Shown: in pieces, positions 4,175-51,598 of the stretch
Layout of the letters: every line of letters begins with the position of its first letter
How positions within the stretch are numbered: the stretch's first letter is position 1
Source of the DNA: a virus
Lineage: Duplodnaviria; Caudoviricetes
Length of the DNA stretch: 64,000 bases
Direction: 5' to 3' (one strand)
Virus record (IMG/VR): IMGVR_UViG_3300028048_000001
Span: 128,001 to 192,000 of that record
Notes under the pieces: generated by a model
The model's database searches: none
The model's input: only the letters and a program-made list of their open reading frames with translations
Told to the model about the DNA's origin: nothing
Program-made: the position numbers and the translations under genes

Positions 4175-5272
4175 ATGAATAATAATGAATCAAATAATAT
4201 AGTGCCTATTAAAGAAAAAGAAGTTAATCAAGAATCAAAAACTTTAGCTATGGAAACATATAATCCCGCTACGGGAAATATTGTAACTTCTCCAGTTAGT
4301 GATAATGATGTAAAAGCGTTATCTGATTTACATTTTGATAAATTTATTTATAATTCTGAAAATATTTTAGATAATGATGATTTAAAGAAATTATTTCCTG
4401 ATGCTATTGGCGATGATATAGAAGATATTAAAAAAGTTAATGAATTAATTAAAAGAAAAAATAATGGACAAAAAATTACTTATGAAGAACTTCCTAAATT
4501 TTTAAAAAATAGTGTTATAAATATTGTATCTAAATCTTTAGATGATAATACACCATCTTTTGCTTATATGAATAATAAAACCCAATTAAATTATATTGCT
4601 AATTTAGTAATAGGACAATTAGTTGAAGAGTATAATAAAAAGAATACTAATTTTGATATAGATACAATGTTAGCTGGATTTGATGAATCTATAGATAAAT
4701 TACAAATAGAAACTTCAAAAGAATTTGGTGATATACTTATGTCTTTTGATGAAGAAAGAAAAAAAGAAATTAATAATGCAATTGAAAGATGTAAAAGAGA
4801 AGGTAAAGAAGAAGCTGTAGAAAAATTTCAAAAAATTAAAAATGTAATTGATGAAGCTTATAATTTAGATAAATTTTCAGAATTCTGTAAACATGTTAAA
4901 ATTAAAAAATTTGATATTGAAAAACCGAAAAGAATCTTTTTATCTTTTAATACTAAATATATGAATCACACTAATAATATTAACGATATCCAATATTGTC
5001 CTGTTGTATTAGATAGGCATAATATTAGTGATCATAATTCTAATATGAAATTATGTTTAGCATTTTGTAAATATTGTATGAATTATTCTCCTGACAATAT
5101 AGAAGAACATACTTTTATGTATTATTTTATTAAGAATATTATTCTTCTTGATAGAATAAATCCAAAAGGTAAAATATATGATACCTTAGACGAAAGATCA
5201 AAGAATTTTTATGATGGGTTTATTAATAATATTTTAAAATGTATCAATAATATTAATAATAAAACATTATAA
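4175..5272 (+). CDS. hypothetical protein (late block)
   Basis: 365-aa ORF with aaggag RBS. Confidence 0.75.
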   Translation: MNNNESNNIVPIKEKEVNQESKTLAMETYNPATGNIVTSPVSDNDVKALSDLHFDKFIYNSENILDNDDLKKLFPDAIGDDIEDIKKVNELIKRKNNGQKITYEELPKFLKNSVINIVSKSLDDNTPSFAYMNNKTQLNYIANLVIGQLVEEYNKKNTNFDIDTMLAGFDESIDKLQIETSKEFGDILMSFDEERKKEINNAIERCKREGKEEAVEKFQKIKNVIDEAYNLDKFSEFCKHVKIKKFDIEKPKRIFLSFNTKYMNHTNNINDIQYCPVVLDRHNISDHNSNMKLCLAFCKYCMNYSPDNIEEHTFMYYFIKNIILLDRINPKGKIYDTLDERSKNFYDGFINNILKCINNINNKTL

Positions 5273-5281
5273 CATTATAAT

Positions 5282-5500
5282 AATTAAAGATATATTTTTA
5301 CTGCCCAATTCCTTTAATTATATATCTTTGATCTTCTTCGTGCTTTGTGACTCTTGTTGTTGTGTATTCATTATTTCTCCTTACTTTATTATTTTTAACT
5401 TTTATTCTTGATTGTTTCGTGTGTGTTCATGGATAAGGCCTCCTTTCGATCAATGTTCTGGCAAACCCAGTAGGAATCTCCTACTGGGTTCTTATTTTTT
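5282..5500 (+). ncRNA. candidate small RNA with anti-Shine-Dalgarno/anti-start cassettes (alternative: two minus-strand micro-ORFs)
   Basis: AACA-N6-TA motif at 5271, terminator at 5464-5490 with T-run, 10-bp stem 5286-5295/5320-5329, pyrimidine tracts complementary to RBS plus ATG. Confidence 0.45.
5464..5490 (+). terminator. intrinsic terminator
   Basis: aacccagtagga-atc-tcctactgggtt followed by cttattttttt. Confidence 0.8.
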
Positions 5501-5529
5501 TATTAAAACTTTATAATAAATCAAACTAA

Positions 5530-8421
5530 GTGAAAGGTATGGTATGTATAAAAATGCTCTTAGATAGTTCATATACAATCATTCCACAAATTAGGTTTAT
5601 ACTTTCTTTTGATAATGATGTAACAAAAACTGTAACTGTTAAACACGAAGATACCGTCTCTTGTACATATAAGAAGAATGGTGAAAAGTTTTCAATTGTT
5701 GGTGTTGTAACTAAGATTGGATGCAATTTTAATTCTTCTCTTGGAGCAGTAAGCACCACTGCTTATATTCAAATAGATGGTTCTTCTGAATATTCTGGAC
5801 AAGTTATTTACGTTCAGCCAACTCAAATTCTTGATATTAATGTGATATCTTCTAGTGGCACTGTAGAAAATATTGTTTGCTCTGTATCTAATGAAGATCA
5901 GAGAATTACATTAGTTAGAGAAAATGAAGTTGGAGTATTCCAATATAGCCTGGATGGTATTACTTGGAATACTGCTGTTGGATCTCAAGGCATGTCTGCA
6001 TATGAATGTGCAGTTGCTTTAGGTTTTGAAGGAACAGAAGCTGAATGGTTAACTAGTCTCATTGGTCCTAAAGGTGATACTGGAGAAGCTGGAGCTCTTG
6101 AAATTTATAGAGTATTCCATTCTATCAGAGAAGCTGAAAGAGATAGATGCGAAGTTCCAAAAGGAAAACTCGTAGCTATCGTATTAGAAGAGGATACATA
6201 TCTCTTTGTAAGAAAAGATGAAGATGATAAATCTAGTCACTGTGGGTGTGGTTGCTTCATTGATGAAGATGGAAAAACTGATCCTATTAATGTAAAAGGA
6301 TATGATTACCTCGGGTCTCTTACTGTTGGACCAGAAGGACCGGAAGGTAAACCTGGTAAATCTGCATATGAATATGCTGTTGAAGGGGGATATCCTGGAA
6401 CAGAAGAGGAATTTATTCAGACACTTGGTAAATCTGCTGTAGCTGTTACTAGTTTCTATATGGGCAAAGATCCTACATTAAGAGAGACCGTTATTGGTCC
6501 TATTGATATGAAGGTCTTTGGATATACAGATAAAGAGACTTTTAAGAGTACAGAATTATCTAGAATAGATATTTATTCTAAGATAAGAGATATTAATCAA
6601 ACTTTATTATTACCAGAAACTATTATTCTTAGAGCTGTTCCAACTAAGAATACTGCTGCTAAACCCAATTTAATTATAGATGATCAGATGTATGTTGCTG
6701 ACCATATTACAAGCTATAATGGAAAAATTGGTGTTCTTAGAAGAGTAAAATATATTGAATCATATAGTGGAGAAACTATCATTTCGGATTGGATTTCTTC
6801 TACTGGTGAATTAGATTATGGTGCTGAAATTCAATATGTTATTGATGGAGAATTTCAAGAATTCACCCCAGAAGTTCAAACTCAATATAGGAAACTTCAT
6901 ACATATGATGATATAACTACTATTGAAACTACAGAATCTACTTATATTTCAATAGTATATCCTATTGATATTACTAAATTTGTACATACATATGTAACCA
7001 CATATATTGAAGAACACAAAGAAGAAATTATAGCTCCTATTGTAAGAGAAATTATTGATCTTCCTGATGGAGAAACATTATCTACATTTGTTGATAAAAA
7101 AATTAAAGATGTAACAGGAGATCTTCCTGATGGTTATGATTCTGTTACAGATTATATTAATGATAAAATTGGACCTCTTCCAGATGGTGTTGATTCTATT
7201 GTAGATTTATTGGATAAAACAGTAGGAGAACTTCCTGATGGAATAGATTCTGTAGTTGATTATATTAAAGATATAGTAGGCGAATTACCAGATGGTGTCG
7301 ATTCTATTGTAGATTTTATCAATGATATAAAAGATACTATAGGTGAAATTCCAGATGGCTATGATTCTGTAATAGACTATATTAAAGACACTGTTGGAGA
7401 AGTTCCTGAAGAGTATGAAACTCTATCTGAATATATCACTGCTGTTAAAACTAAAGTAGGAGATATTCCTGATGAATATGAAACAGTAGCTGAGTATTTG
7501 GAAGCTATCAATGATAAAATTGGACCTCTTCCAGATGGTGTTGATTCTATTGTAGATTTTATCAATGATGAAATCGGTGAAATTCCAGAAGAATATGATT
7601 CTGTAATTGATTATCTTGATGATGTTAAAGCATCTATTGGACCAATTCCAGATGGATATAATTCTTTAGCTGAATATATTGATGATGTTATTGGTGAATT
7701 ACCAGATGAGTACAATTCTATTACTGAGTATATTAATGCACTTAAAAACGAAATCGGTGAATTACCAGATGAATATGATTCTGTAGTAGAATATTTAGCT
7801 GATCTTAAATCTAAAATTGGTGAAATACCGAATGAGTACGATTCTGTTGCAGATTACATTAAACATCTTGTTGGTGAAATTCCAGATGAATATGATTCTG
7901 TTGCAGATTATTTAGCTAGTCTTAAATCTAAAATTGGTGAAATTCCTAGTGAATATGATTCATTAGCCGATTACGTAAGTAATAATACAGAATTTCAAGA
8001 ACCATTTACTACAACAGTTTCTGTAGGAGCTGTTCCTGCTGGTACATATATTGATTCTATGGGAAAATTGATTGATCTTGTTAAAGAATCTGTCGATCCT
8101 ACTGTAGAAGAAGATAACACTATTATTTATGTAGGTGTAGTAAATGATGTACCACTTACGAATTTTGATGGATTAGAAGAAGTAACCATTAAAACTGCTA
8201 CTATAAAGTATGATAAGTTTATCAATTCTTATAGTTCTAATGATCAGCATCTTATTTATGCTGCACCGAAGACTCTTGGTGAACTTATTGCTATTAAAGA
8301 TGCTAGTACATTAAATTGTTTAAATATTTGGTCTTGTACAGAATATAATGGTTATTATATTTATTACACCAATGAACCTCTTACGCTTGAAGATTACGAA
8401 CTTATATTTTACTACAGATAA
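5530..8421 (+). CDS. virion structural/fibre-like protein with collagen-like G-X-Y segments and acidic repeats
   Basis: two G(K/M)SAYE.AV..G..GTE.E motifs next to short G-X-Y runs; about 16 GE(L/I)PD.YDS..DY repeats; true start may be 5539 or 5554. Confidence 0.7.
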   Translation: MKGMVCIKMLLDSSYTIIPQIRFILSFDNDVTKTVTVKHEDTVSCTYKKNGEKFSIVGVVTKIGCNFNSSLGAVSTTAYIQIDGSSEYSGQVIYVQPTQILDINVISSSGTVENIVCSVSNEDQRITLVRENEVGVFQYSLDGITWNTAVGSQGMSAYECAVALGFEGTEAEWLTSLIGPKGDTGEAGALEIYRVFHSIREAERDRCEVPKGKLVAIVLEEDTYLFVRKDEDDKSSHCGCGCFIDEDGKTDPINVKGYDYLGSLTVGPEGPEGKPGKSAYEYAVEGGYPGTEEEFIQTLGKSAVAVTSFYMGKDPTLRETVIGPIDMKVFGYTDKETFKSTELSRIDIYSKIRDINQTLLLPETIILRAVPTKNTAAKPNLIIDDQMYVADHITSYNGKIGVLRRVKYIESYSGETIISDWISSTGELDYGAEIQYVIDGEFQEFTPEVQTQYRKLHTYDDITTIETTESTYISIVYPIDITKFVHTYVTTYIEEHKEEIIAPIVREIIDLPDGETLSTFVDKKIKDVTGDLPDGYDSVTDYINDKIGPLPDGVDSIVDLLDKTVGELPDGIDSVVDYIKDIVGELPDGVDSIVDFINDIKDTIGEIPDGYDSVIDYIKDTVGEVPEEYETLSEYITAVKTKVGDIPDEYETVAEYLEAINDKIGPLPDGVDSIVDFINDEIGEIPEEYDSVIDYLDDVKASIGPIPDGYNSLAEYIDDVIGELPDEYNSITEYINALKNEIGELPDEYDSVVEYLADLKSKIGEIPNEYDSVADYIKHLVGEIPDEYDSVADYLASLKSKIGEIPSEYDSLADYVSNNTEFQEPFTTTVSVGAVPAGTYIDSMGKLIDLVKESVDPTVEEDNTIIYVGVVNDVPLTNFDGLEEVTIKTATIKYDKFINSYSSNDQHLIYAAPKTLGELIAIKDASTLNCLNIWSCTEYNGYYIYYTNEPLTLEDYELIFYYR
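7057..7980 (+). repeat. about 16 tandem coding repeats of 18 or 22 aa
   Basis: e.g. IGELPDEYDSVVEYL; aatgataaaattggacctcttccagatggtgttgattctattgtagattt occurs twice. Confidence 0.85.
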
Positions 8422-33764: not shown

Positions 33765-33914
33765 TTAAAAAAATCTATATAATATTTTTTTGATAATAAT
33801 AGCATAAAGTAAAGCCCATGCTGCATTATTCTGATACCCTATGGCAACCAATACAATTGAAGAGAGGGATAAAATTATCCCAGCAACAACTAATAAATTT
33901 TTTAATATTTTCAT
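33765..33914 (-). CDS. 49-aa membrane peptide missing from the ORF track
   Basis: aaggag RBS; MKILKNLLVVAGIILSLSSIVLVAIG... Confidence 0.55.
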   Translation of the reverse strand: MKILKNLLVVAGIILSLSSIVLVAIGYQNNAAWALLYAIIIKKILYRFF

Positions 33915-33929
33915 ATATATTCTCCTTTA

Positions 33930-34244
33930 TTAATTTTCAAGATAGACTCTAAAATTATCAAAATCTGTTTCTGGATACCACGATCCATCATCTGTATAAG
34001 AGTCAAGATATCCTCTTTCTATATATAATCTTCCAACCGGAGTCATAATTTTTAACATTCCACCATAAGAATACCCAGATGATTCATATACTATCACATT
34101 GTTAAAAGTATCAAATATTTTTAAATCTACATCAAATATAGATCCAGAATTGGTAGCCTTTAAAAGGATTCTTCTATCATCCCCTTCAATATCAAACCAG
34201 GTATCTTCATTAACCATTAAATTCTCATCATAAATAATATACAT
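33930..34244 (-). CDS. hypothetical early protein
   Basis: ggagg RBS; early-type promoter at 34295. Confidence 0.65.
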   Translation of the reverse strand: MYIIYDENLMVNEDTWFDIEGDDRRILLKATNSGSIFDVDLKIFDTFNNVIVYESSGYSYGGMLKIMTPVGRLYIERGYLDSYTDDGSWYPETDFDNFRVYLEN

Positions 34245-49318: not shown

Positions 49319-51598
49319 TTATTCTTGTTCTGGAGCATGACTCATATCTTCAGTAAAAGCGATACCATTAATCATAATAGCATTTTTCTTTTTAATTTCT
49401 TCTATTTCATATAGAGTTTTATACCAATGATTAAAATCATATCCTTCCTCCATAAATTCAATTGCATCAATTGGATCTTCTGGAGATCTTTCATAAAATT
49501 CTAATGCTGGAATTAATGCTGCATATTTTTTATGCTTTTTGATCTTCTTAAAAACCAATCTGTATCCCATGGTTTTTAATCTAGTATTAAGAATTTCAGC
49601 AGATCTATTTTTTGCTTTATAATCTAATTTGATATCTACATTATATGGATCACCAACTGCTGCTTCTTCAACTAATCTTCTACCATGTGGGGATAAAGAA
49701 TGAAGAAGTAAATTAATTACAACATATTCTGTTCCCATATGATCAAAATCACCAGATTCCATTTGACCAAATTTTATAGGTGTATTAGAATTAGGCTCTC
49801 TATAATTCTTACTTGCTTTACTTTTAGTATTTTCATTTTTAATATTAGTAGAACTTAAACTAGCAGCAGAAAATTTTTCTTCAGCAAACTGTTTAAGCCT
49901 TAAACAATATATCGGAGCAGCTATCATTGGTCTTCTTGATTTTATAAATCTATAATTTCCTCGTGAATCTACAATAGGAACCATCAAATATGATTGGCTA
50001 ATCCATGGAAATTCTTTATACAACATTCCTAATTTATCTATATCCATAGTTTCAGATATAGGATTATTAGAAATTGGAATACATGTTTTCTGTAATATAC
50101 TTTCTAAAAAGTATATCATAGACTGTCTATCATATGAGTTTACATAAACCTTCATTTCTTCATACTGTTTAGGAGATTGCAATTTGATAAATTTCATAAT
50201 ATCATCCATTGCAGCATCTATATCATCTCCATAATATCCAGATCTTATTCTGTCAAGAATACACATAGAAATATAATTAATTTCTAATTCAAATATTTGT
50301 CCAGCATTTTCTCTGTTATACATTGTAGAAGAATTTTTAATCATTTCTACAGGTGTTCCATTAGCCATTTTAGGCATTAATTCACTTGGAATAATTTTAG
50401 ATATTACACCTTTTCCACCATATCTGTCTGCTACTTTATCTCCTATTCCTAATGGTCTATTCTCCATAACAGTAAATTCAATTCTGATATTAGAGAACAA
50501 CTTTTTCTCCATAAATTTCTTACCATTAACTTCAGAGACTGCTCTAGAATATAATTTATCTAATCTATATGTAAGTTTATATCCCTGTGCTTTATAAGGT
50601 CCAACAGCATCCATAATCTCTGTACACATTCTAATCCTATCCTTATAATAGGCATAAAACTGCTGATTATATGTAGACTTAGAAATATATTCAGGATTAT
50701 TACAATAAAGCTGAATATCAATTACTTTTCCTTTAATAGTAATTTTATCATCAGACATCATCATCTGTTGTAACCTAGATACAGATTGTGTATAGATTGC
50801 TTCTTCTCTTTTTTCCCTACGATAAGCAAGAAGAATTCCATCTTTAACATCTTCTCCAATATCTGGAAATACTTTATAAATAGAATCGTTTCCATAAATA
50901 TTAAGAGGAATATCATTTTCATTTAAGATAATTTCTACTGTACGAATAAGAGGTGCAGAGAGCTTTTGAGAACAAGTATCAGAGATAATTACAGAATCTT
51001 CCATATTATGATCAAGAGCCATATAAGCAGTATTTACATTATATCCATCTGCTTTATTCCCATAAGCATCAAAACCAGTAGAACGTCTAAGAATTGTATT
51101 AGGCGGTATAATAGAGCCAGGAACAGAATAAGCATCTAATGTAGAATTATTATAAAGAAATCCATAACATTCGGTTTGATATTTATATGATACTCTTTCA
51201 ATAACATCAAGACAATTAGATTCTGTATCTTTTACTATTAAATAATAATGATGATTTGGTGCATAAGAAAATTTAGAAATCTTAGCAAGTACTTCTATAG
51301 GAGAAAAAGATGATGCTCGATGTGAATTATCATTTTTTTCATGAGCAAATAATTCAGAAGAATTAATAATAGAAGAAGATCTCTCTCCAAAACGATTCTC
51401 AAAACCTGTACCAAGATATGGAGGCTGAGCTTGTGAAAGTGTAAGATGATGGCTTTCATGTACAGCATGCATCAGCTTCCTCGCACCGCTATTTGTAGCA
51501 CTATTTGGTTGTAATAACCCTTTTGCTAATATTTGTTCTTTTGTTTCTAAATTAGAATAACTTTCTTGTACTTGTTCAATAAAATTATTTGATTTCAT
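49319..51598 (-). CDS. phage multisubunit RNA polymerase beta subunit, C-terminal half
   Basis: NSGARKLM, NMEDSVIIS, GDKVADRYGGKGVIS, RENAGQIFE, RLKQ, KFGQME motifs. Confidence 0.92.
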   Translation of the reverse strand: MKSNNFIEQVQESYSNLETKEQILAKGLLQPNSATNSGARKLMHAVHESHHLTLSQAQPPYLGTGFENRFGERSSSIINSSELFAHEKNDNSHRASSFSPIEVLAKISKFSYAPNHHYYLIVKDTESNCLDVIERVSYKYQTECYGFLYNNSTLDAYSVPGSIIPPNTILRRSTGFDAYGNKADGYNVNTAYMALDHNMEDSVIISDTCSQKLSAPLIRTVEIILNENDIPLNIYGNDSIYKVFPDIGEDVKDGILLAYRREKREEAIYTQSVSRLQQMMMSDDKITIKGKVIDIQLYCNNPEYISKSTYNQQFYAYYKDRIRMCTEIMDAVGPYKAQGYKLTYRLDKLYSRAVSEVNGKKFMEKKLFSNIRIEFTVMENRPLGIGDKVADRYGGKGVISKIIPSELMPKMANGTPVEMIKNSSTMYNRENAGQIFELEINYISMCILDRIRSGYYGDDIDAAMDDIMKFIKLQSPKQYEEMKVYVNSYDRQSMIYFLESILQKTCIPISNNPISETMDIDKLGMLYKEFPWISQSYLMVPIVDSRGNYRFIKSRRPMIAAPIYCLRLKQFAEEKFSAASLSSTNIKNENTKSKASKNYREPNSNTPIKFGQMESGDFDHMGTEYVVINLLLHSLSPHGRRLVEEAAVGDPYNVDIKLDYKAKNRSAEILNTRLKTMGYRLVFKKIKKHKKYAALIPALEFYERSPEDPIDAIEFMEEGYDFNHWYKTLYEIEEIKKKNAIMINGIAFTEDMSHAPEQE

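Follow-up and report, generated by a model that had tools for sequence, protein, structure and literature searches.

What is encoded in the 257-nucleotide (nt) gap that separates two plus-strand genes of the tail region in an uncultured gut virus, and which of its strands carries the function? The gap lies near the start of a window of 64,000 nt, corresponding to bases 128001-192000 of a 274,241-bp IMG/VR record (G000) that represents a complete virus genome with direct terminal repeats and 26.6% G+C. An earlier interpretation made from the letters alone (the sequence-only reading) had proposed either a late antisense RNA with several cassettes that blocks translation initiation regions, or tandem MNT micropeptides on the minus strand. 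The analyses presented here favour a small RNA (sRNA) over micropeptides. We assign an evenly balanced probability to the more specific proposal, drawn from sequence comparison, that the stretch is the gene for a non-coding, late, plus-strand sRNA of ~219 nt (5282 to ~5500) that would mask translation-initiation regions. Positions are those of the window unless another record is named.

Architecture of the unit

Alignment of the regions upstream of all genes yielded two recurrent boxes. The late-type box (class B), AACWT-N3-DDTAAW, occurs 39 times in G000; 29 copies are intergenic (intergenic DNA makes up 9.6% of the genome) and 26 of the 39 are located 23-60 nt before a co-oriented gene start, that of the downstream fibre-like gene included. 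The early-type box (class A), ATATTATAAT-WW-TGA, is present in 45 copies, most of them 43-130 nt ahead of a start. For the Bacillus jumbo phage AR9, the transcription study gives in its consensus description a late promoter AACA-(6N)-TA/G, whose last base is the transcription start, and an early promoter AAATATATATTAT-(6N)-G (PMC5312081). The two late boxes differ in their fourth base, which is A in AR9 and A or T in G000. The AACA-N6-TA box that the sequence-only reading had noticed at 5271 is therefore well supported, at sequence level, as a member of a promoter class validated genome-wide and of the same form as the mapped late promoters of AR9. Since the AR9 rule puts the start at the last base of the late box, transcription of the unit is predicted to begin at A5282, four bases ahead of the 5' hairpin, and the same rule applied to the box at 5507 predicts A5518 as the start of the fibre mRNA. 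Late timing of the unit is supported by analogy with AR9. No phage promoter of either class was found facing the minus strand near 5440-5900, where only weak sigma-70-like matches (9/12) were present.

Inspection of the sequence downstream of this promoter located each of the elements described in the earlier reading: a stem whose loop holds ttccttt, the tracts tctcctt and cctccttt (complementary to Shine-Dalgarno (SD) sequences and hereafter called anti-SD) each preceded by cat, the complement of a start codon, a terminator stem-loop with a plus-strand T-run, and two micro open reading frames (micro-ORFs) led by ribosome-binding sites on the minus strand (Table 1). The assertion that the plus strand holds no ORF was also borne out, as none with a ribosome-binding site was found in the unit. 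Small plus-strand ORFs, including hydrophobic frames of 27-29 amino acids (aa), were considered and rejected: they lack an SD, and their frame relative to CCTCC varies among relatives. No SD-like motif was found on the plus strand of the unit, no transfer RNA was found in it, and Rfam 15 returned no family match to it (best 19-21 bits against thresholds of 50-60).

The plus strand of the unit has a skewed composition (T 0.49, A 0.20) that differs from that of the flanking coding DNA. Relative to dinucleotide shuffles, minus-strand SD-plus-ATG arrangements were in excess (2 observed versus 0.20 expected, P=0.013). A comparable excess was found in relatives L008 (3 versus 0.27), L014 (3 versus 0.35) and L010 (2 versus 0.07), and was absent in L009, L016 and L031. 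In the minimum free energy (MFE) fold of the window unit (209 nt), cassette 2 is unpaired and cassette 1 partly paired. The MFE z-scores of the whole RNA, -3.2 on the plus and -2.4 on the minus strand, did not discriminate between the strands, as the energy is largely that of the terminator.

Table 1. Elements of the unit, its neighbours and related features of G000
Feature	Position	Strand	Description
Upstream gene	4175-5272	+	ORF reading; 365-aa protein, no assigned function
AR9-type late promoter AACA-N6-TA	5271..5282	+	AACATTATAATA; overlaps TAA stop of gene 4175-5272; predicted start A5282
5' hairpin	5286..5329	+	10-bp stem 5286-5295/5320-5329; conserved loop CUGCCCAAUUCCUUU; anti-SD-like UUCCUUU 5309-5315
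Micro-ORF MNTQQQESQSTKKIKDI	5371-5318	-	TAAGGAGA-N5-ATG; present, not a conserved gene
Cassette 2	5366..5383	+	anti-start CAU 5369-5371, anti-SD UCUCCUU 5376-5382; includes 12-mer CAUUAUUUCUCC
Micro-ORF MNTHETIKNKS	5430-5395	-	AAAGGAGG-N8-ATG; present, not a conserved gene
Cassette 1	5418..5447	+	GUGUGUUCAUG-N8-CCUCCUUUC; anti-start 5428-5430; anti-SD 5439-5447 (cctccttt 5439-5446)
Intrinsic terminator	5464..5501	+	12-bp stem and 3-nt loop (5464-5490), then CUUAUUUUUUU; ~215 nt beyond the promoter
Second late promoter AACT-N6-TA, fibre gene	5507..5518	+	predicted start A5518
Downstream fibre-like protein		+	~955 aa; matches tail-fibre and tail-assembly PHROGs
759-aa gene	49319-51598	-	RNA polymerase Rpb2 domain 6 (PF00562) at G000 178261-179064, 62.7 bits, over cut-off
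Short unit 1	G000 43616-43500	-	AR9-type early promoter, hairpin, single-stranded CAUUAUUUCUCC, intrinsic terminator
Short unit 2	G000 46415-46290	-	AR9-type early promoter, hairpin, single-stranded CAUUAUUUCUCC, intrinsic terminator

Conservation in relatives and paralogous short units

Protein-guided searches of IMG/VR and metagenomes gathered ~20 distinct, syntenic relatives, whose fibre N-terminal domains are 47-91% identical to that of the window; no cultured close relative was found by tblastn. In all distinct unit-bearing relatives (22/22), the 480 nt ahead of the fibre gene contained two matches to the promoter regular expression and no more, one at the stop codon that ends the upstream gene and the other ~45 nt before the fibre start. 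The box at the stop codon was kept in every relative, even where the end of the upstream gene had diverged. Between the two late promoters lie 70-360 nt with no conserved ORF, ending in a G+C-rich hairpin, which in eight relatives is followed by 6-8 T in the next 10 nt, with few A before the stem. Three islands stood out from an otherwise poorly alignable interior: the 5' stem, including the loop GCCCAWTTCCTT; the TYCATG-N8-10-CCTCCTTTC block; and the terminator. The TYCATG block is the best-conserved internal block among the closest relatives, and an anti-SD 10-45 nt before the hairpin was also retained in the more distant ones.

Genome-wide comparison revealed that the window unit shares its seed with shorter units. 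The 12-mer GGAGAAATAATG has exactly three copies in 274 kb, against a chance expectation of ~0.05 copies by our rough composition-based estimate. Each copy lies antisense to a unit without ORFs, and no real gene start contains it. One copy falls in cassette 2 and the others in two ~100-nt units (Table 1), both of which have their early promoter at the upstream stop codon and carry CAUUAUUUCUCC in a single-stranded linker of ~17 nt; their fold z-scores are -8.7 and -5.9. A 288-kb relative (G001) keeps short unit 1 with the hairpin wholly replaced yet paired and the seed CACUAUUUCUCC exposed, while the opposite micro-ORF has changed from 9 to 4 unrelated codons. Judged from these sequences, the layout of the short units is the standard layout of an sRNA and argues against peptides.

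At the locus orthologous to short unit 1, G002 (259 kb; L038 2060-2400) and G003 (249 kb; L037 2520-2850) have instead a ~320-nt unit in which ATCCTTTC and CATCATGTTGAATCTCCTTTTT are present and which is closed by a large-loop terminator; a single locus can therefore differ among relatives in the length of the unit and in its number of cassettes. Elsewhere in G000, the 3' untranslated region (UTR) of a minus-strand gene (232800-233121, between convergent genes) has CATTTTTATTTTCTCCCA directly before its terminator; this could be a further anti-initiation-region tract, or else the start of a small plus-strand gene read in reverse. A pattern search of IMG/VR for further copies of the short units gave one match, which was merely the reverse of a real gene start, and a genome-wide screen for anti-SD tracts before terminators returned mostly trivial matches, in the form of bidirectional terminators beside opposite-strand gene starts.

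Because no other terminator was found in the upstream operon and the terminator is shared, the sequence of the unit probably doubles as the 3' UTR of that operon. If it acted mainly in cis, like the icaR 3' UTR of Staphylococcus aureus, the anti-SD tracts would pair with initiation regions on that same long mRNA or protect its 3' end, and the promoter would be secondary. From gene 4175-5272 up to 5464 no terminator intervenes, so transcripts of the operon should stop at the terminator of the unit, and AAGGAGAA and AATGAATA are common to cassette 2 and the initiation region of gene 4175. That match, however, is generic and interrupted by a 5-nt difference in length; the promoter box persists in all relatives, even in those whose upstream gene has a diverged end, and each short paralogue has an early promoter of its own. 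We regard a mainly cis role as unlikely.

Strand, micro-ORFs and candidate targets

The strand was addressed through RNA structure, with small samples of five sequences for the clade of the window and nine for a second clade. RNAalifold of the 5' hairpin in five relatives gave -6.72 kcal/mol on the plus strand (covariation term -0.44) and -3.42 kcal/mol on the minus strand (+1.64). Six pairs of this hairpin show compensatory changes, and nine cells that are G·U on the plus strand would read A·C on the other. The conserved anti-start/anti-SD block of the second clade lies within a closing stem of 7 bp that begins at position 3 of the predicted RNA; one pair of this stem shows a GC-to-AU compensatory change, and two alternate between G·U or U·G and Watson-Crick pairs on the plus strand. 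The terminator stem also has compensatory changes. As the stems show such changes, selection appears to act on RNA structure, and the comparison supports well that the conserved stems fit the plus strand only, in agreement with the direction of promoter and terminator. The small plus-strand unit of the sequence-only reading thus gained good support, from its promoter class, the conservation of promoter and hairpin in ~20 relatives and strand-specific covariation; its late timing rests on the likeness to AR9.

The micropeptides fared otherwise. The orthologous peptides at the terminator-proximal cassette read MNTHETIKNKS, MNTDSKRSCL, MNSMSTKNRKNHAL, MNNK and MESTHQDTKEME, and the MNTQQQESQSTKKIKDI peptide has no alignable counterpart in relatives. 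Micro-ORF lengths among relatives range from 4 to 17 or more codons with unrelated sequences; by our estimate, 4-17 codons are roughly what an A-rich random frame would give. In the second clade, single-base insertions or deletions shift the frame between near-identical sequences (L011 versus L010; L025 versus L021). The L021 group, L009, L031 and L029 retain the anti-SD with no start codon in range, and in L027 the SD is lost too. With peptides not conserved, frames shifting, start codons lost and no minus-strand phage promoter, micropeptide genes were rejected, and on this comparative evidence the minus-strand micro-ORFs are not conserved genes. The question posed at the outset for related phages, whether peptide sequence or only complementarity to ribosome-binding sites is kept, was answered in favour of the latter. 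SD-led micro-ORFs in such intergenic regions should stay unannotated as genes.

Toxin-antitoxin loci were considered as well. The hydrophobic membrane peptide of ~20-60 aa typical of type I systems was not seen, the micro-ORF peptides being short, polar and not conserved. For type III (ToxIN-like) systems, no tandem repeat array was read in 5282-5500 by eye, with no tandem-repeat tool used, and the next gene is a tail-fibre match.

A different role for the minus strand would be one in which it is transcribed and translation or binding of the 30S subunit matters, not the peptides, so that antisense RNA is stabilised or ribosomes are soaked up. The Bacillus STAB-SD element GAAAGGAGG is an example of a stabilising SD. 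Extended SDs of this kind (GAAAGGAGG) with an ATG at 5-9 nt exceed shuffles in several lineages, and the second codons of the micro-ORFs are AAC or AAA, like those of well-translated genes. Neither phage promoter class faces that direction, however; in the clade of the window the T-run is only on the plus side of the hairpin, the wobble pairs of the conserved stems are A·C mismatches on the minus strand, and several lineages retain the SD without any start codon. Such a role appears rather improbable.

For the favoured plus-strand sRNA, the following mechanism is proposed. The phage non-virion RNA polymerase would transcribe the unit late in infection, and the 5' hairpin and terminator hairpin would stabilise the RNA. 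The U/C-rich stretches between the hairpins would mirror ribosome-binding sites (CCUCCUUUC, UCUCCUU), to which this clade adds the complement of AUG at natural spacing, and by pairing with the initiation regions of other mRNAs they would block the loading of ribosomes. The unit would belong to a small repertoire, together with the two ~100-nt early-promoter units that carry the same 12-nt seed. The SD sequences of G000 genes are strong, AAGGAG(G/A) words being 7-11-fold enriched before starts.

Several results weigh against this proposal. The longest perfect complementarity to real phage initiation regions was 13-14 nt and consisted of a generic SD plus A-rich spacer. The best duplex of 299, between cassette 1 and the start region of gene 8437, paired 20/22 positions at -29.7 kcal/mol; gene 8437 was rejected as a target, since shuffled flanks reached -29.7 kcal/mol in 10% of trials (P~0.10), and its pairing showed no covariation and was not kept in L006, L007, L008 and L010. 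Genes with GGAGAAATAA start regions were likewise rejected as targets of CAUUAUUUCUCC, given that the G001 orthologues do not covary with the G001 seed. Exact 24-mers of both cassettes had 0 matches in the genomes of ~185,000 species. The anti-AUG is not universal among relatives, which makes the cassette picture partly specific to the clade of the window, and the L010/L021 clade has only TTTG after its hairpin in place of a proper T-run. The search of the cassettes against phage translation starts thus returned no significant target and that against hosts no exact match; blocking of initiation regions in trans, as first suggested, is retained here as the predicted activity of the RNA. The conserved block of the second clade was also searched for in the 259-kb genome that bears it, and no further near match turned up.

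The same target searches bear on the possibility that the plus-strand RNA serves as a decoy that binds a protein or the ribosome, for example by imitating the CCUCCUUUC 3' tail of the 16S ribosomal RNA (rRNA). We take CCUCCUUUC(U) to equal the 3' tail of Firmicutes 16S rRNA; CCUCCUUUC is the best-kept internal motif of the unit, and no mRNA target was found. Mimicry of 16S rRNA would need neither an AUG complement at natural spacing nor a 12-nt seed that runs through the spacer, though, and there is no hint of a partner protein, so that we consider a decoy quite improbable. A functionless spacer, made of a leftover promoter, the operon terminator and chance or decaying inverted gene-start remnants, would suit the poorly alignable interior and the length of 70-360 nt among relatives, but is very unlikely, because conservation coincides precisely with the promoter, the paired stems, the anti-SD/anti-AUG blocks and the terminator, elements that remnants would not retain while all else was lost, and because compensatory changes point to selection on RNA structure.

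Genomic setting and known regulatory RNAs

On the downstream side of the unit, ATG 5554 (MLLDSS) is, as read from the alignment, the likeliest start codon of the fibre gene, and this start is kept in all relatives. Starts at GTG 5530 or ATG 5539 were disfavoured, the ATG equivalent to 5539 being out of frame in relative L008. Ahead of ATG 5554, at 16-22 nt, there is a conserved GAAAGG, a spacing unusually wide for an SD. Within the fibre protein, window positions 6900-7900 encode a long run of ~19-20-aa units (…GELPDGVDSIVDYI…), each slightly different in sequence.

Further along the window, the domain match of the 759-aa gene at 49319-51598 identifies its product as a beta-like subunit of a multisubunit RNA polymerase of the phage. 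Another PF00562 match, less strong, was found at G000 91651-92229, inside a 1945-aa ORF, and a weak PF00623 (beta-prime-like) match at G000 33871-33996. Because the genome encodes these RNA polymerase beta-like and weak beta-prime-like matches, the source phage is classed from its sequence as a phiKZ/AR9-type jumbo phage. AR9 and the source phage are alike in being low-GC jumbo phages with two multisubunit RNA polymerases.

Units comparable to that of the window were found in AR9. Among the starts in Table S3 of the AR9 study is a late 'antisense' one at 75478(-), for which one numeric column gives 3757, well in excess of the adjacent rows (PMC5312081). In the AR9 genome (NC_031039), positions 75401-75538 hold an intergenic AACA-N6-TA unit that begins with AAUGUCCUCCUG and continues into a hairpin, and within 115748-115933 the RNA that starts at 115851(+) contains ACCCCUCA and has a terminator. 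Both units are without annotated feature in NC_031039 and carry UCCUCC or ACCCCUC, then a hairpin. AR9-type late promoters do, in other words, drive short ORF-less RNAs with anti-SD tracts. Lavysh et al. (2017, PMC5312081) describe the AR9 units only as antisense RNAs. They share with the window unit an AACA-N6-TA late promoter, the lack of an annotated ORF and a short intergenic RNA that ends in a hairpin. They differ from it in that they oppose their neighbours, measure ~75-90 nt and have a single C-rich tract, whereas the window unit is co-directional, spans ~219 nt and comprises several cassettes; their sequences are not similar. To our knowledge, the late 'antisense' RNAs of AR9, listed in 2017, have never been explained.

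Other known systems resemble the unit in part. RsaE/RoxS and the hairpins of S. aureus RNAIII represent Firmicutes sRNAs with C-rich seeds that mask the SD; they are encoded by the host, use UCCC/CCCC seeds and act on mapped targets. The window unit resembles them as a stand-alone promoter-to-terminator RNA with several pyrimidine-rich, SD-complementary tracts in loops or linkers. Unlike them, it is phage-encoded, has the promoter of a phage polymerase, carries full CCUCC seeds with spacer and anti-AUG, and has no Rfam match. Enterobacterial 3'-UTR sRNAs of the DapZ/MicL type have their own promoter at the end of the upstream gene, are Hfq-dependent and belong to Gram-negative bacteria. Promoter overlap with the upstream coding end and a terminator shared with the mRNA are common to these sRNAs and the window unit, whereas sequence and seeds are unrelated. 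Among phages, the c4 RNA of P1/P7 is an antisense RNA that blocks a ribosome-binding site, as summarised in a review (PMC12197685). Both c4 and the window unit expose sequence complementary to a ribosome-binding site, the blocking being shown for c4 and predicted for the window unit. They differ in that c4 has a known message (ant), belongs to a temperate phage of Gram-negative bacteria and is processed from an operon transcript, whereas the jumbo phage of the window is uncultured and of lytic type, with a low-GC host. The phage sRNAs treated in the consulted part of that review come from phages of Gram-negative hosts (PMC12197685). An antisense sRNA that masks ribosome-binding sites is of a known kind; the phage group here is an unstudied one. 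The regulatory RNAs of lytic jumbo phages have, as far as we know, hardly been studied at all.

Beyond the single locus, we tentatively suggest, as a possibility that we hold to be doubtful, that in AR9-like jumbo phages of gut Firmicutes there is a whole repertoire of sRNAs under the promoters of phage polymerases, with early members of ~100 nt and late multi-cassette members, whose exposed seeds mirror the SD, the spacer and AUG. If true, this repertoire would amount to an RNA-based global reprogramming of translation, either host shut-off or an early-to-late switch, akin to natural antisense oligomers. The window unit gives a concrete hypothesis for the late RNAs of AR9 and for translational control by phages that have their own RNA polymerases.

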